The notes under the pieces were generated by a model. It was given only the letters and a program-made list of their open reading frames with translations. It was not told the origin of the DNA and searched no databases. The translations under genes were made by a program, and so were the position numbers. A stretch of 64,000 nt of DNA, taken from Escherichia phage vB_EcoM_G8. The DNA is taken from sequence record NC_054915.1. One strand, given 5' to 3'. Shown in pieces: positions 4,591 through 55,502 of the stretch. Positions within the stretch are counted from its first letter, which is position 1, and every line of letters begins with the position of its first letter.

Positions 4591-4619
4591 TAGATATATT
4601 TATTACATGGTATTTAGAC

Positions 4620-6131
4620 ATGACTGACATTAAAGTACATTTTTATGATTTTAGTCACGTGAGAATTGATTGTGAAGAAAGTACATTTCATGAACTCCGT
4701 GATTTCTTTAGCTTTGAAGCTGATGGGTATCGTTTTAATCCGAAGTACAGATATGGCCACTGGGATGGACGAATCCGTCTTTTAGATTATAATCGACTTC
4801 TTCCATTCGGCTTAGTCGGGCAAATTAAAAAGTTCTGTGATAACTTTGGCTATAAAGCCTGGATTGACCCACAAATTAACGAAAAAGAAGAATTATCAAG
4901 AAAAGATTTTGATGAATGGCTTTCTAAATTAGAAATCTATTCAGGAAATAAAAGAATTGAACCACATTGGTATCAAAAAGATGCAGTGTTCGAAGGATTA
5001 GTTAATCGTCGTAGAATTCTTAATCTTCCAACATCCGCTGGTAAATCGTTAATTCAAGCTTTGCTTGCGCGATATTATTTGGAAAATTATGAAGGTAAAA
5101 TTCTTATCATTGTTCCAACAACTGCTCTGACAACTCAGATGGCTGATGACTTCGTCGACTATCGTTTATTCAGCCATGCAATGATAAAGAAAATTGGTGG
5201 CGGAGCATCAAAAGATGATAAATATAAAAATGATGCACCAGTCGTTGTTGGTACATGGCAAACTGTAGTAAAACAACCGAAAGAATGGTTCTCACAGTTT
5301 GGAATGATGATGAATGATGAATGCCATCTTGCTACAGGAAAAAGTATTTCATCTATCATATCAGGTTTAAATAACTGCATGTTCAAATTCGGTTTGTCTG
5401 GTTCATTACGTGATGGCAAAGCCAATATCATGCAGTATGTTGGAATGTTTGGTGAAATATTTAAGCCAGTAACGACTTCTAAGTTAATGGAAGATGGACA
5501 AGTAACTGAGCTAAAAATTAATAGTATTTTTCTTCGCTATCCCGATGAGTTCACTACTAAATTAAAGGGAAAAACTTATCAAGAAGAAATAAAAATTATT
5601 ACTGGGCTTAGTAAAAGAAATAAATGGATCGCTAAATTAGCTATTAAGCTTGCACAAAAAGATGAAAACGCTTTTGTCATGTTTAAACATGTATCGCATG
5701 GTAAAGCTATTTTCGATTTAATTAAAAATGAATACGATAAAGTTTATTACGTATCAGGGGAAGTTGATACCGAAACCCGCAACGTAATGAAAACTTTAGC
5801 TGAAAACGGTAAAGGAATAATTATAGTAGCGAGTTATGGTGTATTTTCTACTGGTATTTCAGTTAAAAATCTGCATCACGTTGTTTTAGCGCATGGTGTT
5901 AAATCAAAAATCATTGTATTACAAACAATCGGTCGTGTATTACGTAAGCATGGTTCTAAGACAATAGCAACGGTCTGGGACCTCATAGATGACGCGGGCG
6001 TAGTTTCTAAATCAAAAACATCTTCTAAAAAATACTCGCATTTAAACTATCTTTTAAAACATGGACTTGATCGTATTCAGCGTTATGCTGATGAAAAGTT
6101 TAATTATGTGATGAAAGAGGTTAAACTTTGA
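4620..6131 (+). CDS. uvsW: UvsW DNA/RNA helicase (SF2)
   Basis: 503-aa ORF, N-terminus MTDIKVHFYDFSHVRIDCEE..., Walker A-like PTSAGKS and DECH box (MMMNDECH). Confidence 0.92.
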   Translation: MTDIKVHFYDFSHVRIDCEESTFHELRDFFSFEADGYRFNPKYRYGHWDGRIRLLDYNRLLPFGLVGQIKKFCDNFGYKAWIDPQINEKEELSRKDFDEWLSKLEIYSGNKRIEPHWYQKDAVFEGLVNRRRILNLPTSAGKSLIQALLARYYLENYEGKILIIVPTTALTTQMADDFVDYRLFSHAMIKKIGGGASKDDKYKNDAPVVVGTWQTVVKQPKEWFSQFGMMMNDECHLATGKSISSIISGLNNCMFKFGLSGSLRDGKANIMQYVGMFGEIFKPVTTSKLMEDGQVTELKINSIFLRYPDEFTTKLKGKTYQEEIKIITGLSKRNKWIAKLAIKLAQKDENAFVMFKHVSHGKAIFDLIKNEYDKVYYVSGEVDTETRNVMKTLAENGKGIIIVASYGVFSTGISVKNLHHVVLAHGVKSKIIVLQTIGRVLRKHGSKTIATVWDLIDDAGVVSKSKTSSKKYSHLNYLLKHGLDRIQRYADEKFNYVMKEVKL

Positions 6132-6820
6132 ATTATAAATTAATATATGATAATTTAATTAATAGAGCCCAGAATCGGGCTCGCCTTAATGGATACACTG
6201 AAACACATCATATAATTCCTAGATGTATGGGTGGTACAAATGATAAGTGTAATTTAGTAGAACTAACGGCTGAAGAACATTTTATAGCCCATAAACTTTT
6301 AGCTAAAATTCATCCAAACCATTACGGTATAATTAAAGCTGTTATATGTATGGGGATGAATTCAAATACTCATGAAAGACACGTCAATAAATCTTACGCA
6401 TGGGAACGTCGTAAAATGGCAGAACTTCAATCCGGCGAAGGTAATCCATTTTACGGAAAACACCATACGGAAGAACATAAACAATATATGTCAAAACTCA
6501 TGAAAAGTCGTCCAATTACATGGGGAAATAAAATTAGTAAAACTAAAAGAATGAACCCAACGAAATGGACTGAAGAAGCTAAAAGATTACATTCAATCAA
6601 TCAATCGGGTAAAAATAACGGCATGTATGGAAGGAAACATTCCGCTAAATCTATTCAGAAAATTAAAGATAACATGCCAGATAATTCAGGAGCTAATAAC
6701 CCAGCTGCTAAACCTATAGAAGTAAATGGTGTTAAGTATAAATGTATGAAAGATGCTTCTAAAGCTACTGGATTATCAATGTACAAACTAAGAATACTTA
6801 GAAAAACAGTCAATTTATAA
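6128..6820 (+). CDS. HNH-family homing endonuclease with NUMOD3-like repeats; apparent TTG start overlapping the uvsW stop
   Basis: HNH motif ETHHIIPRCMGGTNDKCNLVELTAEEHFIAH; three repeats of the form G-x-x-N-P/G-x-YGK/R-x-H-x(3-4)-K; GAGG about 9 nt upstream of TTG. Confidence 0.78.
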   Translation: MNYKLIYDNLINRAQNRARLNGYTETHHIIPRCMGGTNDKCNLVELTAEEHFIAHKLLAKIHPNHYGIIKAVICMGMNSNTHERHVNKSYAWERRKMAELQSGEGNPFYGKHHTEEHKQYMSKLMKSRPITWGNKISKTKRMNPTKWTEEAKRLHSINQSGKNNGMYGRKHSAKSIQKIKDNMPDNSGANNPAAKPIEVNGVKYKCMKDASKATGLSMYKLRILRKTVNL

Positions 6821-25592: not shown

Positions 25593-26793
<1,201 letters not shown>

Positions 26794-28167: not shown

Positions 28168-28225
28168 AAAGTCCTCATGTTATGTCAGTAAGACTACTGT
28201 AACACAACACGAGGGACTTGTAAAC
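28160..28225 (-). promoter_or_regulatory. T4 early-type promoter cassette - copy 2 of the 15733-15790 repeat, upstream of alc
   Basis: About 52 nt near-identical to 15733-15786 (one mismatch) with GTTTAC and TATAGT elements. Confidence 0.5.
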
Positions 28226-28228
28226 AGC

Positions 28229-29816
<1,588 letters not shown>

Positions 29817-29843
29817 AATAAAATGGGCCTTGCGGCCCACTCC
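29817..29843 (-). terminator. Hairpin GGGCC-GCAA-GGCCC then ATTTTATT between nrdB and denA
   Basis: Read on minus strand. Confidence 0.5.
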
Positions 29844-30346
29844 TTAAAAGTATTTTTTAAAACTCATCATAACTTTATCATCAACATCATTATCAATCTG
29901 TGCAACAAGATAGGATGACAGTTCTACTTCTTGTGGCGCGGATTGAACATTATCAGAATTAAGATATTCACGAATCCAAGGATATGGATGTTTAACCGGA
30001 GCATCGGTAATTGGGCATGGAAGACCACACTGTTTCATACGAGATACAGTTAAGTAATCAATAAAGCTCCACATGCTATTTGTATTTAATCCAGGAACAT
30101 CGCCATCTTTAAATAAATGAACTGCCCAATCTTTTTCTTGGCGGTTAACTTCCATGAAAATATCAACTGCTTCTTGTTCACACTCTTGAGCAATTTTAAC
30201 CCATTCATCACCATCAGTACCGGATTGAAGTTGACGAATAATATATTGAGTGCCTTTAAGGTGAAGCTGCTCATCACGTGCAATGAACTTCATAATCTTG
30301 GCATTACCTTCCATAATTTCCATGTTCTTATGGAAGTTAAAGGTAC
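29844..30346 (-). CDS. nrdB: Ribonucleotide reductase small subunit NrdB, exon 2 (boundary approximate)
   Basis: Translation ...MEGNAKIMKFIARDEQLHL... matches the conserved R2 core; joining to exon 1 gives ...RFYVSFAC|TFNFHKNMEIMEGNAKI, analogous to E. coli [22 protein letters not shown]. Confidence 0.85.
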
Positions 30347-30938
30347 CGTTATGTTCGATTGAGCTCGCTAATTCTCAACCCGTTCTCTTATGAACTGCTA
30401 CATATTACTATGCAGACCAGACTATATCACAATCCCAGAGGGATTCTCCCCATTTCGAGTCGCTTGACTCTACGTCCGAAGACTAGTCGTTGAACCTTGC
30501 TTTGCAATTGTCGCCGTGCCATCGTTTATATGTTGATGGTGATAAATCTTTCTTATCACAATATGGACAATTCAATTGAATTCTATTTGGATTTAATTTA
30601 CATCTGTCATTATGTTTTAGATAAAATCCAGGACCTTTACCAATGTGACCACAGAAATCACATGTGATTTCTTTTTGTGCAGGATGGGTCCCGTTCTTAA
30701 CCATTTCTAATGTTTTTGCTGATGTTCTTTTCTTATGGTCTTCCATCAGAATCTTTAGGTAGGTCCGTCAGCATCTATCCAAATTTTTCTATAGTTCAAT
30801 TGTGCATCCTCTTAAAAGTATAATCATATTATACCAATTAAAGGTGCAAGCAAAACCTTGGCTGCTAGTTTTCCTATAAAGGACTTTCCAGCAATTAAAG
30901 GAGTTTTCGATAAACGTTACCGTTTAAAGGCGCATTTT
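30347..30938 (-). other. Group I self-splicing intron in nrdB (about 590-600 nt; boundaries inferred, +/-10 nt)
   Basis: R2 reading frame is broken between ...YVSFA and ...MEGNAKI by about 0.6 kb containing a zinc-finger ORF; T4 nrdB is known to carry a group I intron at this place. Confidence 0.8.
30483..30746 (-). pseudogene. Truncated intron-encoded endonuclease ORF (I-TevIII-like remnant, zinc-finger part only)
   Basis: 87-aa ORF with CxxC...CxxC motifs but no HNH catalytic core; the T4 nrdB intron ORF is known to be truncated. Confidence 0.6.
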
Positions 30939-31614
30939 ACGCAAAAGATACATAAAAACGAATAGCTTCTAAGGCATTAATAACGTGCAAACAGAGGTAA
31001 AGAGATTTCATTAAAGCACGTTTAGCTTCGGCTTCTTGCTTAATAGCCCGGTTTAAACGAAAGTCGGCATCAGGAGATTCTTTAGCTAGTTCTACAAATT
31101 CTTTAGCATTTTCCCATTCACGGGTTTTAGTTAAAACATCATCATAATAGCGACCGATAGATTCAGCACGTTTCATAATAGCTTCATCTAATACAATCTC
31201 ATCAAATACCTTTGACGGATCAGTATAAAGATTTCGCATGATATGAGTATATGAACGACTGTGAATAGTTTCACTAAAAGTCCATGTAGCAACCCATGTA
31301 TCAAGGCTTGGGTCTGAAAGCAATGGCATAAGTACAGCAGACGGCGCACGACCTTGAATACTATCAAGTAATGATTGATACTTCAGATTATTAGTAAAAA
31401 TATTTTGTTGATACTGAGGAAGCTTATTAAACTGTGCAGCATCCATCATCAAGTTTACTTCTTCCGGACGCCAGAAAAACGAGAGCGAACGTTCAATAAG
31501 TTCTTCAAATACTCGATGCCGTTGAATATCATAACGCGCAATACCAAGACCTGAACCAAAAAACATAGGTTCTTTTAAAACATCGACCTGTTTAGTATTA
31601 AAAACTGTACTCAT
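30939..31614 (-). CDS. nrdB: Ribonucleotide reductase small subunit NrdB, exon 1
   Basis: 225-aa ORF ending ...LEAIRFYVSFA followed by in-frame TAA at intron start. Confidence 0.88.
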
Positions 31615-33206
31615 TATTTTGTCCTGTAAACTAAATTTCCACAGTCCCAGATTCTTCTAAGACCATTTGCATAACAATTTTCTACTTCAGTTATTGTATC
31701 ATCATAATTTTTAAGCTTGTTTTTAAGCTTATGTTTCATATAGCTTGAGCGGTGAAATACCTCTCCTTTATCGACGTACCAATAACATGGCTCAGAGATA
31801 TGACTAAATTCCATGACAGAGTCATAAACATTTGATAATGTACTGCACCATCTTCGATTGCCATAAGATAGACAATTAATTCCTTTTAATAATTTTGAGG
31901 CTCCTCCTACAACGCAAACCCCTAATTTTGAACACATCCTTAAAAGTTCATCACCCGAGCTATATCTAGATTTACCGATAGAAATAATTTGAACTAACTC
32001 ATTATTGTAATAAAGTCCTTTATACGTATGAGCTCCTGAGCAAAATCCTTGAAGATGATTCTTATTAATAAATTCTTTTGCCTCATCCTTATTAACAAAA
32101 CGCGCTTTGCATTTTCGGGCTGGTATTCTTTCTGATAATCCTAATTTATGCTTTATAATGGATTTCCAGATCTCTCTTTTTGTATCATCAATCCATTCAT
32201 TTTCGAAGATGTGAAGTAATTGAATTCCTTGTGCTTCACACATCTCTGTCTTCATCAAATGATAAGTTTCTTTAATTTTATCTGTTTCCTTTGACCCGCT
32301 AGAATGCCAATAAATTCCATCGTATTCTATAGCCAATTTTTTCTCAGGAATGTAAATATCTAATTCATACGGAGGAATAATTTTTCTAGTTTCTACGCAA
32401 TCAAATCCTAGATCTAAAATGAATTGCTCTATAGAACTTTGAGTATAATGAACGTCAATTAGTCCTTTGGATGAAAGAGCTCTATAAGCCGTCATCCGAG
32501 AACAATTTGCTAATTGTTGTAGTTCTTCTATAGAAATTTTGTAATTGATTTTATCTAGTATATCATGATTAATATGACCGTTATTTTTAATAGATTTTCC
32601 TATAGATGAATATAACGATGCCTTATATTCTTCAGTCCAATTTAATTTAGTCTTCTTAGATTTTTCGCGAGATTTTCTAGAATTCAGAATATCAACTGAT
32701 TTACCGTTTTCTATAACTTTTCTCGCTTCTTTCACGCTTTCTAATTGTGAATTATGCGTTACCCCATATCGTTCAATTAAAGTTTTTCTATTTTTATTTC
32801 TTGAAATTTTTTGATGAGTTGTTCCATATTTTTCTAAATAATTTTTGCGTTGAAGTTCAGACAAATATTTTTTATATTTTTCTTTTCCGCCAAAATTTGT
32901 ATCACGGCTTTGAATTCTCTTATCCGCGAAAAATATCCCTGCGCAGGATTTACTACATGTTGCTGGAAATACACGTTTCTTTGCTGTTTTCAGAGAAATG
33001 AAATTTCCACAAACTGCACATTTTAGATCGTTAATGTCAATGCCTTCCATAATTTGGAACACATTGAGCTTAAAATCTATTCCATCAGTTAGAAGAGCTT
33101 TATCTTCTTCTGTTAGTCTAGATTTAAGTTTTTCTTCTCCAAATGGAAGAAACTTTCCGTTTTTGTATATATTATCAAACATAGCGTTATTCTTAGTTAA
33201 CCACAT
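31614..33206 (-). CDS. Putative freestanding homing endonuclease, 530 aa: N-terminal Cys cluster, YG-x-xH repeats, HTH-like segment, Vsr/DUF559-like PD-(D/E)xK nuclease motif
   Basis: Motif YELDIYIPEKKLAIEYDGIYWHSS...GIQLLHIFENEW; no HNH motif; occupies the nrdA-nrdB interval where T4 carries mobE. Confidence 0.6.
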   Translation of the reverse strand: MWLTKNNAMFDNIYKNGKFLPFGEEKLKSRLTEEDKALLTDGIDFKLNVFQIMEGIDINDLKCAVCGNFISLKTAKKRVFPATCSKSCAGIFFADKRIQSRDTNFGGKEKYKKYLSELQRKNYLEKYGTTHQKISRNKNRKTLIERYGVTHNSQLESVKEARKVIENGKSVDILNSRKSREKSKKTKLNWTEEYKASLYSSIGKSIKNNGHINHDILDKINYKISIEELQQLANCSRMTAYRALSSKGLIDVHYTQSSIEQFILDLGFDCVETRKIIPPYELDIYIPEKKLAIEYDGIYWHSSGSKETDKIKETYHLMKTEMCEAQGIQLLHIFENEWIDDTKREIWKSIIKHKLGLSERIPARKCKARFVNKDEAKEFINKNHLQGFCSGAHTYKGLYYNNELVQIISIGKSRYSSGDELLRMCSKLGVCVVGGASKLLKGINCLSYGNRRWCSTLSNVYDSVMEFSHISEPCYWYVDKGEVFHRSSYMKHKLKNKLKNYDDTITEVENCYANGLRRIWDCGNLVYRTK

Positions 33207-33222
33207 CCTTGTGGTAATTATA

Positions 33223-35487: not shown

Positions 35488-35804
35488 AAGTCCTCAACTT
35501 GAAAATCGTCTTTAAACAATCGGTTAACTATATGAGCTATTATATCACCATGACACGGCTTTGGTTTACATGTGCATCCTAGCCTCATTCCACGTAAAGG
35601 CTCTAAATGTGCTTTAGTTATTTCTCCAGATTTAATTCGACGTATAAAATCTTTTTTGAATAATTCAATGGCAGCCTCCCGGCTGCCAGCATCTTTACCG
35701 ACGTAATTTCCCCAAAATGTACCGCGATGAATATTAACATCAAAGTCGGATTTGTATTTATTCACTACCCGGCATAGACGGCCCACGCTGGAATAATTCG
35801 TCAT
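35478..35804 (-). CDS. Conserved hypothetical protein (nrdA.1 position)
   Basis: 108-aa ORF. Confidence 0.55.
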
Positions 35805-36021
35805 ATTGTTTTTCCGTTAAAACAGTAATATCATAGTAACAATCAGAAGAAGTTTTAACTGTAGAAATTTTATTATCAAAATACTCACGAGTCATTTTAT
35901 GAGTATAATATTTTTTGCCATAAATGATAATAGGCTGTTCTGGTCCTGGAACTTCTAACTCGCTTGGATTAGGAAGTGTAAAAAGAACAACACCAGAAGT
36001 ATCTTTAAATCGTAAAATCAT
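35758..36021 (-). CDS. Conserved hypothetical protein (nrdA.2 position)
   Basis: 87-aa ORF. Confidence 0.5.
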
Positions 36022-36329
36022 ATTGCCATTTTCCCTTTAATTGCTGGATGCGATTCATAATTTTCAAGGATAAAATCTTTCGGTTTCATGTATTCAGTTA
36101 ACCAGTAAAGCTGTGTTTCGGTGTCACAATTTCCAAACTCTATAGGCCAATCAATTTTAAGTTCACACAGTTCTTTAGGCTCACGACGTAAAATTTCTTT
36201 ACATTGCTCAGTATGATTCATATAGATATGAGTATTACCACCGGAAAATATCAAATCTCCCGGAATAAGATTACACATCTTAGCCACAATATGCGTCAAG
36301 GCAGCGTACGAGGCAATGTTGAATGGTAG
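36018..36329 (-). CDS. td: Thymidylate synthase, exon 2
   Basis: Translation [39 protein letters not shown]... continues the TS fold; exon begins right after intron-terminal ...CATAATG. Confidence 0.9.
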
Positions 36330-37345
36330 CATTATGTTCAGATAAGGTCGTTAATCTTACCCCGGAATTATATCCAGCTGCATGTCACCATGCAGATCAG
36401 ACTATATCTCCAACTTGTTAAAGCAAGTTGTCTATCGTTTCGAGTCACTTGACCCTACTCCCCAAAGGGATAGTCGTTAGGCATTTATGTGGAACCAATT
36501 CCATTTATCAGATTTTACACGATAAGTAACTAATCCAGACGAAATTTTAAAATGTCTAGCTGCATCTGCTGCACAATCAAAAATAACCCCATCACATGAA
36601 ATCTTTTTAATATTACTAGGCTTTTTACCTTTCATCTTTTCTGATATTTTAGATTTAGTTATGTCTGAATGCTTATGATTAAAGAATGAATTATTTTCAC
36701 CTGAACGATTTCTGCATTTACTACAAGTATAAGCAGAAGTTTGTATGCGAACACCGCACTTACAAAACTTATGGGTTTCTGGATTCCAACGCCCGTTTTT
36801 ACTTCCGGGTTTACTGTAAAGAGCTTTCCGACCATCAGGTCCAAGTTTAAGCATCTTAGCTTTAACAGTTTCAGAACGTTTCTTAATAATTTCTTCTTTT
36901 AATGGATGCGTAGAACATGTATCACCAAACGTTGCATCAGCAATATTGTATCCATTAATTTTAGAATTAAGCTCTTTAATCCAAAAATTTTCTCGTTCAA
37001 TAATCAAATCTTTCTCATATGGAATTTCTTCCAAAATAGAACATTCAAACACATTACCATGTTTGTTAAAAGACCTCTGAAGTTTTATAGAAGAATGGCA
37101 TCCTTTTTCTAAATCTTTAAAATGCCTCTTCCATCTCTTTTCAAAATCTTTAGCACTTCCTACATATACTTTATTGTTTAAAGTATTTTTAATCTGATAA
37201 ATTCCGCTTTTCATAAATACCTCTTTAAATATAGAAGTATTTATTAAAGGGCAGTCCTACAATTTAGCACGGGATTGTCTACTAGAGAGGTTCCCCGTTT
37301 AGATAGATTACAAGTATAAGTCACCTTATACTCAGGCCTCAATTA
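36330..37345 (-). other. td group I intron (1016 nt)
   Basis: Minus strand after exon 1 reads TAATTGAGGCCTGAGTATAAGGTGA..., the 5' end of the T4 td intron as I remember it; length matches. Confidence 0.9.
36477..37214 (-). CDS. Intron-encoded GIY-YIG homing endonuclease I-TevI (245 aa)
   Basis: N-terminus MKSGIYQIKNTLNNKVYVGSAKDFEKRWKRH (GIY...YVG motif); 245 aa; inside td intron. Confidence 0.93.
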   Translation of the reverse strand: MKSGIYQIKNTLNNKVYVGSAKDFEKRWKRHFKDLEKGCHSSIKLQRSFNKHGNVFECSILEEIPYEKDLIIERENFWIKELNSKINGYNIADATFGDTCSTHPLKEEIIKKRSETVKAKMLKLGPDGRKALYSKPGSKNGRWNPETHKFCKCGVRIQTSAYTCSKCRNRSGENNSFFNHKHSDITKSKISEKMKGKKPSNIKKISCDGVIFDCAADAARHFKISSGLVTYRVKSDKWNWFHINA

Positions 37346-37894
37346 ACCCAAGAAAACATCTACTGATCGTTGATACCACTGCAAATCCAAATAACCATTA
37401 CGCACATTAAACTGATAGAACATATGACAGGGCGGTAATGCCATTTGATTGATTTCAGCTGGATTCCATGCTGAAACGATTTGACGTCGATCAGTTGGTA
37501 ATTTTTTAATACGATCAATAGTTTCAACTAATTGATCCACACCACCGAAATCACGCCATTGTTTACCGTATATAGGACCAAGTTCACCACTATGATATCC
37601 TAGGTCTTTAGCCTGGTTTTCATAGTTATCGTCCCAAATAGTTTTACCTTGAATAAGACTACCATGAGTGCGAAGACGTAAATCATTAACATTGGTAGAA
37701 CCGGAAATAAACCATAAAAGCTCAGCAACGCATGCATTCCAGGCGAGCTTCTTAGTTGTTACTGCAGGAAAACCTTTGGTTAAATCCCAACGCAATTTAG
37801 TACCGAACAGAGCAATTGTTCCTGTGCCCGTTCGGTCATCGGTTTCATAGCCATTTTCAAAAATGTCTTTAATTAAATCTTGGTATTGTTTCAT
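37346..37894 (-). CDS. td: Thymidylate synthase, exon 1
   Basis: 183 codons MKQYQDLIKDIFENGYE...WYQRSVDVFLG then intron. Confidence 0.92.
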
Positions 37895-37939
37895 TTAGTA
37901 CCTTATATAAATTATAATACATTTTATGAAGCTAAATAA

Positions 37940-38299
37940 TCAATACGGTTTAGCATCAAATTTTCTCTCAATTTCAGGCGTGAAATATAATTCTTTACCG
38001 CGTTTGGAAAAGCGACCAATAATATGATAATTATTCTCATCAAACGTGATATTACCAATATCCATAGCTTTCAACCAAATATCGATATTTCTATCCAGCT
38101 TTATGTCAAAATTCCAATACGGAGAACTATTACCGAAAATACTGCAAGCGGATTCAGTGAAACAACTGCTATAAATCTTGTCTTTAGGAACTACTAATTG
38201 ATAGACACCTTTAATAAACTGAGGACCCTGCCACTTTGGCTGTTTCGCGTCTTTTTCTAATAAAATAGGGTAATAATTAAAATTCATATTTTCCGCCAC
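37940..38299 (-). CDS. Hypothetical protein (119 aa) inserted between frd and td
   Basis: ORF with no recognisable motif; in T4 frd and td overlap directly. Confidence 0.5.
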   Translation of the reverse strand: MAENMNFNYYPILLEKDAKQPKWQGPQFIKGVYQLVVPKDKIYSSCFTESACSIFGNSSPYWNFDIKLDRNIDIWLKAMDIGNITFDENNYHIIGRFSKRGKELYFTPEIERKFDAKPY

Positions 38300-38307
38300 G
38301 CGTTATT

Positions 38308-48235: not shown

Positions 48236-49351
48236 ATGGAAAAATTTATGGCAGAGTTTGGACAAGGATATGTCCAAACGCCATTTTTATCGGAAAGTAA
48301 TTCAGTAAGATACAAAATAAGTATAGCGGGTTCTTGCCCGCTTTCTACAGCAGGACCATACGTTAAATTTCAGGATAATCCTGTAGGAAGTCAAACATTT
48401 AGCGCAGGCCTTCATTTAAGAGTTTTTGACCCTTCCACGGGAGCATTAGTTGATAGTAAGTCATATGCTTTTTCGACTTCAAATGACACTACATCAGCTG
48501 CCTTTGTTAGTTTCATGAATTCTTTGATGAATAATCGAATTGTTGCTATATTAACTAACGGAAAGGTTAATTTTCCTCCTGAAGTAGTATCTTGGTTAAG
48601 AACCGCCGGAACGTCTGCTTTTCCATCTGACTCTATATTGTCAAGATTTGACGTATCATACGCTGCTTTTTATACTTCTTCTAAAAGAGCTATTGCATTA
48701 GAGCATGTTAAATTAAGTAATAGAAAAAGCACAGATGATTATCAAACTATTTTAGATGTTGTATTTGACAGTTTAGAAGACGTCGGAGCTACCGGGTTTC
48801 CAAGAAGAACGTATGAAAGTGTTGAGCAATTCATGTCAGCGGTTGGTGGAACTAATAACGAAATTGCGCGTTTACCAACTTCAGCTGCTATAAGTAAATT
48901 ATCTGATTATAATTTAATTCCTGGAGATGTTCTTTATCTTAAAACACAGCTATACGCCGATGCCGATTTACTTGCTCTTGGAACTACAAATATATCTATC
49001 CGTTTTTATAATGCATCAAATGGATATATTTCTTCAACACAGGCTGAATTTACTGGACAAGCTGGGTCTTGGGAATTAAAGGAAGATTATGTAGTTGTTC
49101 CAGAAAATGCTGTGGGATTTACGATATACGCGCAAAGAACTGCTCAAGCGGGACAAGGCGGTATGCGAAATTTAAGCTTTTCTGAAGTATCAAGAAATGG
49201 CGGAATTTCAAAACCCGCTGAATTTGGCATCAATGGTATTCGTGTTAATTATATCTGTGAATCTGCTTCACCTCCGGATATAATGGTACTTCCTACGCAA
49301 GCATCGTCTAAAGCTGGTAAGGTGTTTGGACAAGAATTTAGAGAAGTTTAA
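48236..49351 (+). CDS. 35: Long tail fibre hinge connector gp35
   Basis: 371-aa ORF at the T4 gene 35 position. Confidence 0.9.
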   Translation: MEKFMAEFGQGYVQTPFLSESNSVRYKISIAGSCPLSTAGPYVKFQDNPVGSQTFSAGLHLRVFDPSTGALVDSKSYAFSTSNDTTSAAFVSFMNSLMNNRIVAILTNGKVNFPPEVVSWLRTAGTSAFPSDSILSRFDVSYAAFYTSSKRAIALEHVKLSNRKSTDDYQTILDVVFDSLEDVGATGFPRRTYESVEQFMSAVGGTNNEIARLPTSAAISKLSDYNLIPGDVLYLKTQLYADADLLALGTTNISIRFYNASNGYISSTQAEFTGQAGSWELKEDYVVVPENAVGFTIYAQRTAQAGQGGMRNLSFSEVSRNGGISKPAEFGINGIRVNYICESASPPDIMVLPTQASSKAGKVFGQEFREV

Positions 49352-49354
49352 ATT

Positions 49355-49381
49355 GAGGGAGCCTTCGGGTTCCCTTTTTCT
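49355..49381 (+). terminator. Imperfect hairpin GGGAGCC-TTCG-GGTTCCC followed by TTTTTCTTT after gene 35
   Basis: Read directly. Confidence 0.45.
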
Positions 49382-49382
49382 T

Positions 49383-49390
49383 TATAAATA
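49383..49390 (+). promoter_or_regulatory. T4 late promoter TATAAATA upstream of gene 36
   Basis: Exact TATAAATA about 24 nt upstream of the gene 36 ATG. Confidence 0.6.
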
Positions 49391-49413: not shown

Positions 49414-50079
49414 ATGGCTGATTTAAAAGTAGGTTCAACAACCGGAGGCTCTGTCATTTGGCATCAAGGAAATTTTCCATTGAATCCAGCCGGTGACGAT
49501 GTACTCTATAAATCATTTAAAATATATTCAGAATATAATAAACCACAAGCTGCTGATAACGATTTCGTTTCTAAAGCTAATGGTGGTACTTATGCATCAA
49601 AGGTAACATTTAACGGCGGTGTTCAAATACCATATGCTATAAACAATACAAATCAATCTGGTATTTATCCTGGTAATGGAGATGCAGCTACTTTTGTTAC
49701 AGCAAATATTGATATTGTTTCATGGTATGGTATTGGTTTTAAATCATCACAGGGTTCAGCAGCCAGAACTGTAGTAATCAATACACGTAATGGTGATATT
49801 AGTACAAAAGGTGTTGTATCCGCTGCAGGTCAAGTAAGAAGTGATGCGGCTGCTCCTATAGCAGCGAATGACCTTACTAGAAAGGACTATGTTGATGGAG
49901 CAATAAATACTGTTACTGCAAATGCGAACTCTAGGGTGCTACGGTCTGGTGACACCATGACAGGTAATTTAACGGCGCCAAACTTTTTCTCGCAGAATCC
50001 TGCATCTCAACCTTCACACGTTCCACGATTTGACCAAATCGTAATTAAGGATTCTGTTCAAGATTTCGGCTATTATTAA
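49414..50079 (+). CDS. 36: Long tail fibre distal connector gp36
   Basis: 221-aa ORF, same size as T4 gp36. Confidence 0.9.
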   Translation: MADLKVGSTTGGSVIWHQGNFPLNPAGDDVLYKSFKIYSEYNKPQAADNDFVSKANGGTYASKVTFNGGVQIPYAINNTNQSGIYPGNGDAATFVTANIDIVSWYGIGFKSSQGSAARTVVINTRNGDISTKGVVSAAGQVRSDAAAPIAANDLTRKDYVDGAINTVTANANSRVLRSGDTMTGNLTAPNFFSQNPASQPSHVPRFDQIVIKDSVQDFGYY

Positions 50080-50087
50080 GAGGACTT

Positions 50088-53000
50088 ATGGCTACTTTAA
50101 AACAAATACAATTTAAAAGAAGCAAAATCGCAGGTGCACGTCCTGCTGATTCAGTATTAGCCGAAGGTGAATTGGCTATAAACTTAAAAGATAGAACACT
50201 TTTTACTAAAGATGATTCAGGAAATATCATCGATTTGAGCATTTCTGCTGGTGGTAATATCAGTGGAAATATCACTCAAACTGGTAATTATTTACAAAAT
50301 GGAACATATAATCTTAATGGAAACCAGTTTGTTTATGCAGGAAGATATATTGAATTTTTACCTAAAACAGCTGGTAATGGCGCTTGGGCAAATCAACACC
50401 TAAATAAAGCTCCTATCTTTACAGATTTAAGTTCAGCTACTTCTGTTTCAGAATACCATCCGTTGATTAAACAACGCTATAAAGATGGAACTTTTTCATT
50501 AGGTACTTTAGTTTCTGAAGGTTCATTAAAATTCCATTACATTAATGAGGCAGGTGAATCTAAATATTGGACGTTTGCGCGCTCAGGTAATTTTCAAGTT
50601 GATTCTGGTAATTTATTAGTATCTGGTGGGTATTTAGTCGCTCATAGTAATATTGAAACAAGAACAGGTTCTTTGATTGGTCCATCTGTTATAACTAAAA
50701 ATATTTCATTTGATACAAAAGCATTCGGACAGTATGATTCACAGTCATTAGTTCAATATGTTTATCCTGGAACAGGTGAAGAAAATGGTATAAACTATCT
50801 TCGTAAAGTTCGAGCTAAATCAGGTGGAACCATTTACCATGAAATCGCTTCAGCTCAAACTGGTAAGAATGATGAAATTTCTTGGTGGACAGGAAATATA
50901 CCTACTACTAAATTAATGGGTCTTCGTAATGATGGAGCAATGGTATTACGTCGTTCGCTTGCTATTGGCACAATTACCACTGACGAAAATACTAACAACT
51001 ATGGCTCTCCTACTCCAATGGGAGAAAGATATATTGCTTTGGGCGATGCTGCCACTGGTTTAAAATACATTAAGCAGGGTGTTTATGATTTAGTAGGTAA
51101 TTGGAATTCTGTTGCTTCTATTACTCCTGACAGTTTCCGTAGTACTCGTAAAGCATTATTTGGACGTTCAGAAGACCAAGGCGGAACCTGGACAATGCCT
51201 GGAACGAACGCTGCTCTCTTGTCTGTTCAAACTCAGGCAGATGTGAATAACGCAGGCGATGGTCAAACCCACATTGGATATAATTCTGGCGGTAAATTTT
51301 CCCATTATTTCCGCGGTAAAGGCCAAACCAACATTAATACACAAGAAGGTATGGAAGTTAACCCTGGTATTTTGAAATTGGTAACTGGTTCTAATAATGT
51401 ACAGTTTTATGCTAACGGAACAGTATCTTCAATACAAAGAATTAAATTTGATAATGGATTAGTTCTTACTGGTGCTAGACCCGATGGTATTCAACTTGAC
51501 GCTCCTACAACAACAGATGGCACTAAAACTATACTGTGGGCTGGTGGTACTCGCCCAGGTCAGAATAAAAGTTATGTATCTATCAAAGCATGGGGTAATG
51601 CCTTTAACGCATCTGGCGATCGTTCCCGTGAAACAGTTTTTGAGGTAGGTGATGGGCAAGGTTACCATTTTTATTCTCAACGTGTAGCTCCTGCGCCTGG
51701 TTCGACTGTCGGGCCTATTCAACTTCGAGTTAATGGTGGTTTATTGACTTCAGGTAGTATTGTTGCTTCTGGTTCTATTACAACCGAATCTTCTTTGAGT
51801 GTTAATAACGGCATGTCAGTAAACGGCCAAGTTAAAATCGGCGGAACGGCAGATAATTTCCGTATCTGGAACTCTCGTTATGGTGCCATTTTCCGTCGCT
51901 CCGAAACATCATTATATATTATCCCAACTAATGAAAATGAAGGGGAAAACGGTGCAATAAGCAACCTTCGTCCGTTTAGTATTGAGTTAGGCACCGGCTC
52001 TGTTGTAATGGGAAACCATACTCAAGCGGGTAAAAACCTTTTCACGGTTGATAACGTTTCTAAATTAGTACAAACTGATGTTCGTTTCCGTGTTAACATG
52101 GATTCCGACGGTATTGTTTTGAATGCTTCTTCTCAAGCAGCGTCTAACTTTATCCAAGGACGTAAAGCGGATGTTACAAAATGGTATCTCGGTATTGGCG
52201 ACGGTGGTAACGTTGTTCGTTTACATAACTATACTTATTCCCACGGTATTGCATTAAACTCTGATACTGTAGATATTACTAAGCCTCTTAAAATTAATAA
52301 TATTCGAATTGGTACAGATGGCAACATCACAGGTGGTACTGATAATTTTGCCAATTTAAATACAACGTTAAACAATAAAGTCAATGTTGGTGGTTGGTCA
52401 GGCGGAGCTACAACTGGGTGGTATAAGTTTGCGACAGTTAATATTCCTCAATCTACTGGAACAGTATCATTTAAAATATATGGTGGTTCAGGATTTAATT
52501 TTAAAAGATATGGGCAAGCTTCTGTCGCAGAAATAATTCTTAGAACTGGAAATAATCCTAAAGGACTTAATGCCACACTATGGAACAGAACTTCTGAAGC
52601 ATTTTCACAAATTGCCACAGTTAACACGAGCAATGATACATATGACGTTTATGTTTATGTGGGAGGATATTCAAATGCTTTAGTCATCGAATATTCATGC
52701 ACCAGTAATAGTACAGTAACCGTAGTCGGTCTTAACGGAGGAATTCAACCTATTGTTGAAACACTTCCAGAAGGTCATGTAGTAGGTAAAACTGTAAGAT
52801 TATTGAATAACATCGATGGAATGTTTGCTGCTGGCGAATCTGATGTTGTTACTCGTGGTGAATTTGTTACCAATAACCAAAAAGGTTTACGTATTAAATC
52901 TAGAGGTAATGATATTGATTCGAATGCTGCTATCATTCGAAATGATGGTGGAAGTTTTTATATTTTAGCTACAGACAAGAATACGTCAGAAAAACCCAAT

Positions 53001-53978
53001 GCGGCTAGTGGTGATTGGAATAATTTAAGACCTTTCTCCATTAATATGGCTGATGGTCGCGTTGGTATGAACCATGGTCTAAATATTACCGGCGGTGGCT
53101 TGAATGTTACTGGTGGCTTGAATGTTACTAGTGGTAATACTAGTTTAGGTAATATCTCGTCTCGTGTAGTAGCAGGTTGGCGAGGAGCGTCTGGTTGGGC
53201 TGATAACTCGGATACAATGAAATCTAAAATCACCTTTATGGCAGACCATGGGGATTTATCTAATTCAGGCAGTTATTATCCTATTGTAGGTGCATACAGT
53301 AACTACGGCTCGGCGGGTTATCGTCAAACCTTTGAGTTCGGATGGGTCGGTTCCGGCACTACAGCGGGTTGGCGCGATGGTATTATTCGTATTCGCGGAG
53401 ATAATGCTAATGGCCAGCAAGCAAGATGGCGCTTTACAATGGACGGTACTTTAGATTGCCCTGGTAAAGTACTGCTACCACAAACAGGTGCCTTTGGTGT
53501 CAATACATCAAATGGTCTCGGTGGAAATAGTATAACATTTGGTGATAGCGATACCGGTATTAAGCAAAATGGCGATGGATTATTAGACATATATGCGAAC
53601 AATGTGCAAGTGTTCCGTTTCCAAAATGGTGATTTGTACTCATATAAAAATATAAATGCTCCAAACGTTTATATTCGTTCTGATATTCGTTTAAAATCCA
53701 ACTTTAAGCCTATCGAAAATGCACTTGATAAAGTTGAAAAACTTAACGGTGTCATTTACGATAAAGCTGAATACATCGGTGGAGAGGCAATTGAAACTGA
53801 AGCGGGTATTGTGGCCCAAACGTTACAAGACGTTTTACCAGAAGCTGTCCGTGAAACAGAAGACAGCAAGGGTAATAAAATACTCACTGTTTCTTCTCAA
53901 GCCCAGATTGCTCTTCTGGTTGAAGCTGTGAAAACACTTTCTGCTCGTGTAAAAGAACTTGAATCTAAACTTATGTAA
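50088..53978 (+). CDS. 37: Long tail fibre distal subunit gp37, T2-type with C-terminal intramolecular-chaperone-like domain
   Basis: 1296-aa ORF; N-terminus as T4 gp37; C-terminal DIRLKSNFKPIENALDKVEKLNGVIYDKAEY...KELESKLM resembles the S74-type self-cleaving chaperone domain. Confidence 0.9.
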   Translation: MATLKQIQFKRSKIAGARPADSVLAEGELAINLKDRTLFTKDDSGNIIDLSISAGGNISGNITQTGNYLQNGTYNLNGNQFVYAGRYIEFLPKTAGNGAWANQHLNKAPIFTDLSSATSVSEYHPLIKQRYKDGTFSLGTLVSEGSLKFHYINEAGESKYWTFARSGNFQVDSGNLLVSGGYLVAHSNIETRTGSLIGPSVITKNISFDTKAFGQYDSQSLVQYVYPGTGEENGINYLRKVRAKSGGTIYHEIASAQTGKNDEISWWTGNIPTTKLMGLRNDGAMVLRRSLAIGTITTDENTNNYGSPTPMGERYIALGDAATGLKYIKQGVYDLVGNWNSVASITPDSFRSTRKALFGRSEDQGGTWTMPGTNAALLSVQTQADVNNAGDGQTHIGYNSGGKFSHYFRGKGQTNINTQEGMEVNPGILKLVTGSNNVQFYANGTVSSIQRIKFDNGLVLTGARPDGIQLDAPTTTDGTKTILWAGGTRPGQNKSYVSIKAWGNAFNASGDRSRETVFEVGDGQGYHFYSQRVAPAPGSTVGPIQLRVNGGLLTSGSIVASGSITTESSLSVNNGMSVNGQVKIGGTADNFRIWNSRYGAIFRRSETSLYIIPTNENEGENGAISNLRPFSIELGTGSVVMGNHTQAGKNLFTVDNVSKLVQTDVRFRVNMDSDGIVLNASSQAASNFIQGRKADVTKWYLGIGDGGNVVRLHNYTYSHGIALNSDTVDITKPLKINNIRIGTDGNITGGTDNFANLNTTLNNKVNVGGWSGGATTGWYKFATVNIPQSTGTVSFKIYGGSGFNFKRYGQASVAEIILRTGNNPKGLNATLWNRTSEAFSQIATVNTSNDTYDVYVYVGGYSNALVIEYSCTSNSTVTVVGLNGGIQPIVETLPEGHVVGKTVRLLNNIDGMFAAGESDVVTRGEFVTNNQKGLRIKSRGNDIDSNAAIIRNDGGSFYILATDKNTSEKPNAASGDWNNLRPFSINMADGRVGMNHGLNITGGGLNVTGGLNVTSGNTSLGNISSRVVAGWRGASGWADNSDTMKSKITFMADHGDLSNSGSYYPIVGAYSNYGSAGYRQTFEFGWVGSGTTAGWRDGIIRIRGDNANGQQARWRFTMDGTLDCPGKVLLPQTGAFGVNTSNGLGGNSITFGDSDTGIKQNGDGLLDIYANNVQVFRFQNGDLYSYKNINAPNVYIRSDIRLKSNFKPIENALDKVEKLNGVIYDKAEYIGGEAIETEAGIVAQTLQDVLPEAVRETEDSKGNKILTVSSQAQIALLVEAVKTLSARVKELESKLM

Positions 53979-54003
53979 AAGAGGGCTTCGGCCCTCTAAG
54001 GAT
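53979..54003 (+). other. GC-rich hairpin AGAGGGC-TTCG-GCCCTCT between genes 37 and 38 (no U-run)
   Basis: Perfect 7-bp stem with UUCG loop. Confidence 0.4.
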
Positions 54004-54008
54004 TTTTA

Positions 54009-54815
54009 ATGGCAATTGTAGGTGTTCCTGGCTGGATTGGTGAATCTGCCGTGAATGAAACTGGACAACGTTGGATGGATGCTGCGATGAGAGCTGTTCG
54101 TGTTTCAGTTCCCGGTTGGATGAGTTCAATGGCAGGAAAGTCAGTTGAAAAAGCTTATTCAATTGGCTCAAATCATTCATATAATAAAGATACTTTAATT
54201 AATTGGCTTAAATCAATTGGAACAGCTCCTGCTGTTGTAACAATAACAGGAGATATTGTTTCTAGTTCTTCAACTATTCCGTGCTTAGATTTTCCTAGTT
54301 CATTAACCAATGAATATGTGACATTGATTATTAACTCTGGCGTTACTGTTTACGGCCGAGGAGGTAATGGGTCTGGATCTAGTGGAGGTTCTGGAGGCGC
54401 TTTAGTTCAAGCAACTGCTGGTGGTACGGCGATTAATAATGGTATTGGTGCACGCTTACGTATTACGAATAATGGTGCAATTGCTGGCGGCGGCGGCGGC
54501 GGCGGCGGTTGGTCCGCAGATTATAACTTCACATTACGTAATGTTGCTGGCGGCGGCGGCGGACGTCCTTTCGGTACTGGTGGTCGAGGTGGTCGAGGTA
54601 ATGGTGGTAATGCATCGTTAACCGCCGCAGGTGGTAAAGTAACCGTTGATGGTAATAACATGAGTGGTGCTGGTGGTAACGTTGGTGCGGCTGGTGGTGC
54701 TGCCGTTCGTACATCAAACTATAATACCAGTGGTGCTGGTGCTGCTGGTAAAGCTGTTACTGGTAATGCTCCAACTTGGACTAAAGTTGGTACAATATAC
54801 GGTTCAAGAGTATAA
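54009..54815 (+). CDS. 38: Receptor-recognising adhesin gp38 (T2-type, glycine-rich motifs)
   Basis: 268-aa ORF; N-terminus MAIVGVPGWIGESAVNETGQRWM; poly-Gly stretches GGGGGGGW and GGGGGRPFG. Confidence 0.88.
   Translation: MAIVGVPGWIGESAVNETGQRWMDAAMRAVRVSVPGWMSSMAGKSVEKAYSIGSNHSYNKDTLINWLKSIGTAPAVVTITGDIVSSSSTIPCLDFPSSLTNEYVTLIINSGVTVYGRGGNGSGSSGGSGGALVQATAGGTAINNGIGARLRITNNGAIAGGGGGGGGWSADYNFTLRNVAGGGGGRPFGTGGRGGRGNGGNASLTAAGGKVTVDGNNMSGAGGNVGAAGGAAVRTSNYNTSGAGAAGKAVTGNAPTWTKVGTIYGSRV
54486..54506 (+). repeat. (GGC)7 trinucleotide repeat encoding poly-Gly in gp38
   Basis: Read directly. Confidence 0.9.
54549..54560 (+). repeat. (GGC)4 trinucleotide repeat encoding poly-Gly in gp38
   Basis: Read directly. 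Confidence 0.85.
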
Positions 54816-54845
54816 TTTGAATAAATATCCTTAAAAGGAGGGTCT

Positions 54846-55502
54846 ATGGCAGCACCTAGAATATCATTTTCGCCCTCTGATATTCTGTTTGGTGTTCTAG
54901 ATCGCTTGTTCAAAGATAACGCTACCGGGAAAGTTCTTGCTTCCCGGGTAGCTGTCGTAATTCTTTTGTTTATAATGGCGATTGTTTGGTATAGGGGAGA
55001 TAGTTTCTTTGAGTACTATAAGCAATCAAAGTATGAAACATACAGTGAAATTATTGAAAAGGAAAGAACTGCACGCTTTGAATCTGTCGCCCTGGAACAA
55101 CTCCAGATAGTTCATATATCATCTGAGGCAGACTTTAGTGCGGTGTATTCTTTCCGCCCTAAAAACTTAAACTATTTTGTTGATATTATAGCATACGAAG
55201 GAAAATTACCTTCAACAATAAGTGAAAAATCACTTGGAGGATATCCTGTTGATAAAACTATGGATGAATATACAGTTCATTTAAATGGACGTCACTATTA
55301 TTCCAATTCAAAATTTGCTTTTTTACCAACTAAAAAGCCTACTCCCGAAATAAACTACATGTACAGTTGTCCATATTTTAATTTGGATAATATCTATGCT
55401 GGAACGATAACCATGTACTGGTATAGAAATGATCATATAAGTAATGACCGCCTTGAATCAATATGCGCTCAGGCGGCCAGAATATTAGGAAGGGCTAAAT
55501 AA
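54846..55502 (+). CDS. t: Holin T
   Basis: 218-aa ORF (same as T4 holin) with single N-terminal transmembrane segment. Confidence 0.92.
   Translation: MAAPRISFSPSDILFGVLDRLFKDNATGKVLASRVAVVILLFIMAIVWYRGDSFFEYYKQSKYETYSEIIEKERTARFESVALEQLQIVHISSEADFSAVYSFRPKNLNYFVDIIAYEGKLPSTISEKSLGGYPVDKTMDEYTVHLNGRHYYSNSKFAFLPTKKPTPEINYMYSCPYFNLDNIYAGTITMYWYRNDHISNDRLESICAQAARILGRAK

Follow-up and report, generated by a model that had tools for sequence, protein, structure and literature searches.

The distal end of the long tail fibre locus in Escherichia phage vB_EcoM_G8 raises the question of which kind of tip it builds: one in which gp37 itself would contact the receptor, as in T4, or one in which a separate adhesin, gp38, would do so, as in T2 and S16. 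The window analysed here, a single stretch of 64,000 nucleotides, runs collinear to T4 107478-168903; identity in the aligned blocks is mostly 94-98%, and the window departs from T4 only at this locus. We hold with high confidence that the distal tip encoded by genes 37 and 38 is of the standard T2/S16 type. In domain content, motifs and homology the two proteins group with T2, S16 and PP01, and it is by analogy with these phages that cleavage, docking and receptor binding would follow. Nothing in the sequence speaks against this model, and the module is a textbook arrangement, long known and already annotated for vB_EcoM_G8 gp38.

The elements of the locus and its flanks are the following:

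49383..49390, + strand: putative late promoter of T4-type consensus TATAAATA (exact match), upstream of gene 36
49414..50079, + strand: gene 36, distal hinge connector, 221 aa (Pfam Phage_T4_gp36, E 3.5e-43)
50088..53978, + strand: gene 37, distal half-fibre subunit precursor, 1296 aa (open reading frame; Pfam Gp34_trimer, gp37_trimer and Peptidase_S74)
50235..54820, + strand: T4-divergent segment, from about codon 50 of gene 37 to the end of gene 38 (blastn against T4)
53980..53997, + strand: C(UUCG)G hairpin AGAGGGC-UUCG-GCCCUCU between genes 37 and 38 (folding; match in a terminator-like scan)
54009..54815, + strand: gene 38, tail fibre tip adhesin, 268 aa (Pfam GP38, E 1.4e-66; Gp38_N, E 8.5e-18)
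54846..55502, + strand: holin gene t, 218 aa, the conserved right-hand flank of the module (Pfam Phage_holin_T, E 1.5e-118)

The blastn match to T4 ends at 50234, being 96.6% identical up to that point, and restarts at 54821 with 98.2% identity; between them, T4 similarity is limited to patches of 74-76% reaching to 51948. Both genes have exactly the coordinates and lengths given in the initial annotation, whose T4 lengths for comparison (gp37 1026 aa, gp38 183 aa) are also right. Its statement that the other proteins are T4-sized holds as well: gp34 (1289 aa), gp36 (221 aa) and the holin (218 aa) have the T4 lengths, and gp35 has 371 aa against 372. The holin shares 218 of 218 residues with its T4 counterpart and gp36 is 91% identical to T4 gp36 as a protein, with the central part of gene 36 just 81-86% identical at the nucleotide level. 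Gene 38 is placed directly between gene 37 and gene t, and the order around 37-38-t is the same in T2, T6, RB51, S16, Lutter and fPS-65.

The TATAAATA copy at 49383..49390, at the same position as a late promoter annotated upstream of gene 36 in Lutter and fPS-65, is likely to start a 36-37-38 late transcript, and an exact scan found no further copy directly upstream of gene 37 or gene 38. The hairpin between the two genes precedes AAGGAUUUUUAAUG, which comprises the Shine-Dalgarno sequence and start codon of gene 38, and its T2 counterpart is annotated in X04442 as 'stem-loop; pot. transcription terminator'. It could act as a brake on gene 38 expression, with a minimum free energy (-13.4 kcal/mol; z -1.75) that is unexceptional against shuffled sequences, 10 of 200 of which fold equally well or better. 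An Rfam scan of the whole 64-kb window returned nothing at gathering thresholds.

Inside the divergent segment, the closest relative changes from block to block. Residues 26-125 of gene 37 are closest to PaulHMueller (94-96% nucleotide identity), residues 126-225 are Lutter-like, 226-575 T2/PaulHMueller-like, 676-1075 IsaacDaniel-like (92-100%) and 1076-1296 T2-like, and the best match in the collection for residues 576-675 reaches just 85%. Gene 38 is Lutter-like, with a nucleotide identity to T2 of only 47-74%. The 37-38 locus is best read as a recombinational patchwork drawn from the T2-type fibre pool and set between conserved flanks, namely gene 36 with the start of gene 37 on one side and gene t on the other. 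The fine-scale mosaic of gene 37 and the 19-nt repeats in gene 38 described below are further examples of an evolution by recombination that is already known for this locus. Acquisition of the fibre module by recombination, as initially proposed, is thus borne out as heavy mosaicism within both genes, but not as a one-off import into a T4-like backbone. The polarity of that import has to be reversed, because the adhesin type is the predominant T-even form (761 phage records against 297 in the collection searched) and T4, whose tip is a lambda-derived replacement, is the exception (PMC3157838; PMC6851490).

A recent one-step transfer, in which a T4 genome received its fibre cassette from T2, rather than the piecemeal shuffling of an ancestral T2-type state, would draw on the sharp breakpoints at 50234 and 54821, the identity of the flanks to T4 and the unchanged holin protein. 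Even so, these flanks are no mark of T4 origin, since they are conserved equally in T2, Lutter and IsaacDaniel, and no single donor provides both the gene 37 blocks and gene 38. The nearest backbones, F26, FL23 and Lv5cm (95-97%), are no more distant than T4, and FL23 at least has a gp38 adhesin; T4's own tip, moreover, is the replaced one (PMC3157838). A foreign base composition of gene 38 was considered and rejected, as its GC content of 45.9% drops to 37.2% without the 60 glycine codons, which are the cause of the rise. We regard the one-step transfer as highly unlikely.

The gene 37 product is 83% identical to T2 gp37 and 48% identical to T4 gp37 across 958 aligned residues, and its distal end is made up of two parts:

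53511..53678, + strand: distal beta-helical tip, gp37 aa 1142-1197 (aligns to the S16 gp37 tip, 6F45_A)
53679..53975, + strand: Peptidase_S74 intramolecular chaperone domain, gp37 aa 1198-1296, 99 aa (PF13884)

The C-terminal sequence quoted in the initial annotation is present, and the resemblance to an S74 chaperone suspected there was confirmed by the profile search, which gave a complete PF13884 match (aa 1198-1255 against HMM positions 1-58 of 58; E 3.5e-15; 56.5 bits with a cut-off of 22 bits), Ser/Lys dyad included, followed by a helical tail up to the C-terminus. The two residues, Ser1198 and Lys1203, lie in SDIRLK starting at aa 1198, with the lysine five residues after the serine, and form what we take to be the catalytic dyad of this family (MEROPS S74; Schulz et al. 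2010). T2 gp37 also has an S74 domain (aa 1243-1300), whereas Pfam finds none in T4 gp37. MYRF, likewise an S74 protein, matches gp37 (E 1.2e-3), its ADLRAK aligning with S1198-D-I-R-L-K1203. The tip and chaperone match S16 gp37 (6F45_A; E 1.3e-10 and 9.8e-12; BLASTP 4e-19), and the predicted autocleavage site between R1197 and S1198, in the motif NVYIR^SDIRLK, matches that of S16, DLNVS^SDRRIKK, whose serine falls on Ser1198 in the BLASTP alignment (S16 site from PMC7917993). For S16, autoproteolytic release of the domain has been reported, and the literature states it for T2 and T6 as well (PMC3157838; PMC7917993). The tip segment is 96-100% identical to T2 in nucleotide sequence, and aa 1142-1197 would, after cleavage, become the docking surface of gp38, to judge from the S16 structure (PMC6851490).

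The domain might instead be a relic that folds the fibre without being cleaved, or gp38 might bind independently of cleavage. In favour of this, the predicted scissile serine follows an Arg, in a place occupied by Ser in S16. Nevertheless, the dyad and all 58 profile positions are intact, the domain is 96-100% nucleotide-identical to that of T2, and T2 gp37 is reported to lose its C-terminal part (Drexler et al. 1986). The fPS phages, which have the same YIR^SD motif, have been given the same cleavage interpretation (PMC7917993). Loss or irrelevance of cleavage is therefore most improbable, and a processed gp37 remains our reading.

The gene 38 product is identical (100%) to vB_EcoM_G8 YP_010069544.1, annotated in GenBank/RefSeq as "tail fiber protein; host specificity". 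It matches PF05268 GP38 with 225 bits (aa 47-268 against HMM positions 1-218 of 218) and PF21721 Gp38_N with 64.5 bits (aa 1-42), both far above the cut-off of 25 bits each. Its fold can be considered settled, because the sequence matches solved structures over nearly its full length: the S16 adhesin 6F45_D (E 9.2e-42, aa 8-266) and the PP01 gp38 fusion 9V85 (E 1e-42, aa 39-268). As the initial annotation had anticipated, the protein aligns to T2/S16-type adhesins, with 67% identity to T2 gp38, and it is rich in glycine (22% overall, 32% in aa 117-268), with runs at G160-G167 and G181-G185. That gp38 could work as in T4, as a non-structural assembly chaperone for a gp37 whose own C-terminus binds the receptor, is barely credible: gene 38 does occupy the position of T4 gene 38, and the name 'distal long tail fiber assembly catalyst' is still given to its homologues in several database records, but its product shows no similarity to T4 gp38 (the BLASTP match covers 7 residues with E 3.7, and a global alignment pairs 3 residues, none of them identical), it matches virion-bound adhesins, and gp37 has S74 in the place of the Collar and Phage_fiber needle domains that Pfam detects in T4 gp37 and not in the window protein.

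The adhesin itself consists of an attachment domain and, following the definition in PMC3157838, five glycine-rich motifs (GRM1-5) between four hypervariable segments (HVS1-4), which were located by alignment:

54009..54143, + strand: N-terminal attachment domain, aa 1-45, with W9, W22 and W37
54372..54419, + strand: HVS1, aa 122-137, with the 6-residue insertion ALVQAT (alignment of 13 adhesins)
54510..54548, + strand: HVS2, aa 168-180
54585..54665, + strand: HVS3, aa 193-219
54699..54737, + strand: HVS4, aa 231-243

The three tryptophans align with those that dock S16 gp38 (PMC6851490). The glycine-rich motifs show 54-100% conservation in a comparison with 12 reference adhesins, and they encode the exact 19-nt direct repeat (54481-54499 and 54544-54562) that flanks HVS2. 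Outside the allele group, identity in the hypervariable segments does not exceed 37%. The ALVQAT insertion, which sets HVS1 apart from most adhesins, recurs among the 13 aligned only in Lutter and IsaacDaniel; HVS3 is 100% identical to Lutter and SH-2 and at most 37% identical to every known-receptor adhesin, and HVS4 is 84-92% identical to Lutter, IsaacDaniel and SH-2 and at most 23% to the known-receptor adhesins. Replacement changes relative to Lutter gp38 are concentrated here: of 8 such changes, 6 fall in these segments (Fisher p 0.004), where dN/dS is 0.46 against 0.02 elsewhere.

Taken together, the tip would be assembled as follows. Expressed late, probably from the promoter ahead of gene 36, gp37 would trimerise as a beta-helical fibre, guided by its own C-terminal S74 intramolecular chaperone. 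This domain would then cut itself off between Arg1197 and Ser1198 through the Ser1198/Lys1203 dyad, freeing a 99-residue fragment and exposing a hydrophobic gp37 tip. On this tip, a single gp38 would dock by its N-terminal helical domain (W9, W22, W37), its glycine-rich motifs would form a polyglycine-II sandwich, and its distal loops, the four hypervariable segments, would touch the bacterial surface receptor and so determine the primary host range.

The claim that gp38 sets receptor specificity is well supported by homology and by published swaps (bioRxiv 10.64898/2026.04.02.716166; PMC3157838), and would hold for this phage by analogy: the hypervariable segments determine porin choice, and an exchange of gp38 that begins at HVS2 changes the receptor (bioRxiv 10.64898/2026.04.02.716166; PMC12032242; PMC3157838). 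Assigning the receptor by homology was tried and rejected, as the hypervariable segments are at most 26% identical to every known-receptor adhesin aligned, a set formed by T2 (FadL), T6 and JK38 (Tsx), PaulHMueller/Bas45 (OmpA), RB51 (OmpF), S16 and PP01 (OmpC), and fPS-65 (LPS core). The hypervariable allele is rare: a blastn search of 50,697 phage records found the specificity region in only five phages (six records), FJ1, Lutter, IsaacDaniel, SH-1 and SH-2, none of them with a defined receptor. In the literature and supplements on Lutter, FJ1, IsaacDaniel, SH-2 and G8, the receptor information consists of one crude result, namely that FJ1 adsorption is sensitive to periodate and insensitive to proteinase K (PMC10035155). 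This does not clearly point to a protein receptor, and hints at one outside the established gp38 set. We consider it doubtful, if conceivable, that the allele recognises a receptor beyond Tsx, OmpA, OmpC, OmpF, FadL and OmpW; if so, the candidates are a further conserved protein of the outer membrane, or else a glycan epitope, of LPS or of another kind, that E. coli, Shigella and Hafnia share. It is more likely that the allele is a divergent one that binds OmpA or OmpC. It is gene 38 that should be consulted for the primary host range of this phage, where in T4 it would be the tip of gp37. This is of limited practical value, and the small group to which the allele belongs, having no assigned receptor, is relevant to receptor-prediction models and to the design of phage cocktails.

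Among the known systems, T4 shares with the window the locus, the genes on either side of it, codons 1-49 of gene 37 and an internal Gp34_trimer-like region, but its gp37 carries a receptor-binding needle (Collar, Phage_fiber) and no S74 and its 183-aa gp38 is unrelated. The S16 tip complex (PDB 6F45; OmpC) is the structural prototype, whose trimeric gp37 beta-helix, autocleaved chaperone, single gp38 held by three tryptophans and polyglycine-II sandwich all map by sequence onto the window proteins (PMC6851490), even though S16 belongs to the genus Gelderlandvirus, its chaperone fragment has 113 aa instead of 99, and its gp37 tip and gp38 hypervariable segments are only about 30% and 18% identical, respectively, to those of the window. 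The closest relatives of the gp38 allele, beyond vB_EcoM_G8 itself, are those of vB_EcoM_Lutter and vB_EcoM_FJ1 (97%) and Hafnia phage IsaacDaniel (95%), with Lutter and IsaacDaniel differing in a gp37 that is 81% identical and matches other blocks in each. Shigella phages SH-1 and SH-2 have a gp38 85% identical to that of the window, with HVS2-4 in common; since HVS1 and the N-terminal half of the SH-2 protein are different, it looks like an intragenic recombinant. A further counterpart is the T2 system, a FadL/OmpF-binding adhesin on the tip of a proteolytically processed gp37, with the same gene order (36-37-38-t) and Pfam architecture, 98-100% identity over gp37 aa 1001-1296, S74 included, and 95% in the gp38 docking domain. 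The differences lie in gp37, 45 aa shorter in the window and unlike T2 over aa 651-750 (22-44% in 50-aa bins), and in gp38, which is only 67% identical to its T2 counterpart overall and 20% identical in the hypervariable segments, and a receptor different from that of T2 is therefore expected.

Genes 37 and 38 of the window encode a T2/S16-type tip of the distal long tail fibre, and both open reading frames (ORFs) lie where the initial annotation had placed them:

50088..53978, plus strand: gene 37, ORF of 1296 aa
54009..54815, plus strand: gene 38, ORF of 268 aa

The lengths cited there for the T4 proteins, 1026 aa for gp37 and 183 aa for gp38, are likewise correct. As had been claimed, gp38 is a T2-type adhesin and not the T4 chaperone: it matches the Pfam families GP38 (1.4e-66) and Gp38_N (8.5e-18), and almost all of it aligns to the adhesins of known structure from S16 (6F45_D, 9.2e-42) and PP01 (9V85, a gp38 fusion, 1e-42), whereas BLASTP finds no similarity to T4 gp38 (E 3.7). 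Its poly-glycine character is evident (Gly 22% overall and 32% from aa 117 on, with runs at G160-167 and G181-185). Alignment with 12 reference adhesins locates the docking tryptophans W9, W22 and W37, and a layout of five glycine-rich motifs (GRMs) and four hypervariable segments (HVS):

gp38 aa 122-137: HVS1
gp38 aa 168-180: HVS2
gp38 aa 193-219: HVS3
gp38 aa 231-243: HVS4

Gene 38 exceeds the window in GC content (45.9% and 35.6%), which is no evidence of foreign origin, since the value falls to 37.2% once its 60 glycine codons are removed.

The gp37 C-terminal sequence quoted earlier is found in the translated ORF, and the proposed S74-like chaperone domain is detected as a full-length profile match: a complete Peptidase_S74 lies at the extreme end of the protein (aa 1198-1255 against HMM 1-58 of 58, E 3.5e-15; 56.5 bits, cut-off 22). 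Pfam also identifies Gp34_trimer (aa 508-632) and gp37_trimer (aa 675-749). T2 gp37 likewise has the S74 domain, at its aa 1243-1300; in T4 gp37 it is absent, and Collar and Phage_fiber are matched instead. Ser1198 opens the domain with the motif S-D-I-R-L-K, Lys1203 standing at +5, and the S16 gp37 tip of known structure (6F45_A) aligns to the final 155 residues (BLASTP 4e-19), with S16 'SDRRIK' on 'SDIRLK'. Since NVYIR^SDIRLKS matches the cleavage sites of S16 (DLNVS^SDRRIKK) and of the fPS phages (DVYIR^SDGRLKI) (PMC7917993), gp37 is predicted to be cleaved between R1197 and S1198; a split before Ser1198 would give a mature chain of 1197 residues and a C-terminal fragment of 99. Elsewhere in gene 37, a perfect 18-nt tandem duplication (53094-53129) encodes GGLNVT twice (gp37 aa 1003-1014). 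Given these domain matches and alignments, the assignment stands on both points at which it could have failed, namely an alignment of gp38 to the T4 chaperone or a missing S74 domain.

The window is collinear with T4 107478-168903: most aligned blocks are 94-98% identical, and weighting all the pieces by length gives a mean of 95.2%. In amino-acid sequence, gp34 and gp35 are 98% identical to their T4 counterparts and the holin matches at 218/218 residues. Gp35 (48236-49351) also shows a modest Pfam match to ILEI, the interleukin-like EMT inducer (aa 58-127, E 1.3e-08). Because the T4 alignment ends at 50234 (around codon 49 of gene 37) and restarts at 54821, six bases past the end of gene 38, the segment departing from T4 is 50235-54820, close to the coordinates first proposed. 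The centre of gene 36 (49564-49863) shares 81-86% identity with T4 and 60-61% with T2, and both ends share 93-98% with both, so mosaicism already starts upstream of gene 37.

Several other loci depart from T4. A 678-bp insertion directly after uvsW (6125-6802) holds an ORF (6128-6820, plus strand) of 230 aa with NUMOD3 motifs (E 7.6e-14), probably a homing endonuclease, and segE is missing at about 4607-4625. At 31616-33208, in the interval from nrdB to nrdA that contains nrdB.1 and mobE in T4, lies a 530-aa ORF (31614-33206, minus strand). Its only similarity, weak and sub-threshold, is to nuclease folds (REase_MTES_1575 and DUF559); near this place, a 'Hef-like homing endonuclease' is annotated in relatives. 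Two further insertions, 37898-38302 (405 bp, ORF of 119 aa) and 26496-26790 (295 bp, ORF of 100 aa), encode products with no Pfam match, and nothing in the window aligns with T4 129476-130257 (the 30.7/30.8 region). In the td and nrdB regions (about 28200-31600 and 35800-37900), the window runs collinear with T4, whose td and nrdB genes contain introns, and an ORF of 245 aa (36477-37214) occupies the I-TevI position; an Rfam scan of the whole window gave no match at gathering thresholds, and long ORF insertions may defeat its group I intron models.

The exact late-promoter consensus TATAAATA precedes gene 34 (44316) and gene 36 (49383), and was not found directly ahead of gene 37 or gene 38, which suggests that genes 36-37-38 probably share one transcript. 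Two hairpins matched the terminator-like scan, the second of which has an annotated equivalent in T2:

49355-49376: C(UUCG)G tetraloop hairpin, 3' of gene 35, just before TATAAATA (49383-49390)
53980-53997: C(UUCG)G hairpin between genes 37 and 38, -13.4 kcal/mol

The initial annotation spoke of a T2-type module in a T4-like backbone, which is accurate as a description but not as an unusual import. In the T4 superfamily the gp38 adhesin predominates, and it is the T4 tip (gp37 C-terminus plus gp38) that is the replaced one, derived from lambda (PMC3157838; PMC6851490). In a collection of 50,697 phage records, 761 have the adhesin type and 297 the T4 type; the flanks of the module are conserved equally in T2, Lutter and IsaacDaniel; and the closest backbones, F26, FL23 and Lv5cm (95-97%), are no more distant than T4, the adhesin being present in FL23 at least. 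The module thus represents the normal state of the genus.

The module as a whole has no match among the records of this collection; IsaacDaniel (88% over 90%) and Lutter (82% over 100%) come closest. Along gene 37, the nearest relative changes from block to block:

Nearest relatives of gene 37 blocks (gp37 residues; nucleotide identity in 150-nt windows)
26-125: PaulHMueller, 94-96%
126-225: Lutter, 90-95%
226-575: T2 / PaulHMueller, 88-98%
576-675: no close relative; best SholemSchwarzbard, 85%
676-1075: IsaacDaniel, 92-100%
1076-1296: T2, 96-100%

Gp38 is 97% identical to that of Lutter and FJ1, 95% to IsaacDaniel, 85% to SH-1 and SH-2, and 67% to T2. These sequence data show that blocks have been exchanged repeatedly within the pool of T2-type fibres. 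Since the gp38 of Shigella phage SH-2 (locus 301-1089) joins HVS2-4 as in the window to an ime09-like N-terminal half and HVS1, it looks like a natural intragenic recombinant with its crossover in GRM2. An exact 19-nt direct repeat, TTGCTGGCGGCGGCGGCGG, lies at 54481-54499 and 54544-54562, in two glycine-rich motifs bracketing HVS2; loops could be exchanged or deleted through it. Micro-homology of this kind was reportedly proposed by Tetart et al. in 1998 to mediate adhesin shuffling.

The HVS are 91% identical to those of Lutter, 89% to IsaacDaniel and 73% to SH-2, but only 10-26% to ime09 and to adhesins of known receptor, namely T2 (FadL), JK38 and T6 (Tsx), Bas45 (OmpA), RB51 (OmpF), S16 and PP01 (OmpC), and fPS-65 (LPS core). 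By blastn, this specificity region occurs in only five phages (six records) of the collection, and no receptor is reported in the literature for phages bearing it; adsorption of FJ1 is sensitive to periodate and insensitive to proteinase K (PMC10035155). Against Lutter, dN/dS of gp38 is 0.08 overall, 0.46 in the HVS and 0.02 elsewhere, with six of the eight replacements within the HVS (Fisher p 0.004). Because one HVS3 substitution can turn OmpF into OmpW specificity (bioRxiv 10.64898/2026.04.02.716166), 97% identity should not be taken to guarantee the same receptor.

The observation of the module is confirmed, and its interpretation in the initial annotation is supported. The module is already known and ordinary, the sole remaining novelty lying in the receptor of a rare gp38 allele. 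Escherichia phage vB_EcoM_G8 has exactly this gp38 (QBQ80132.1 in GenBank, YP_010069544.1 in RefSeq), under the annotation 'tail fiber protein; host specificity' and in a 90% cluster of 54 members; the window probably comes from G8 or from a phage very close to it. Korf et al. (2019), who described G8, expected tips of the S16 kind for G10400 and G50 alone and did not classify the other gp37 sequences (PMC6563267); by their matches, the gp37 and gp38 of the window belong in the S16/T2 class too.
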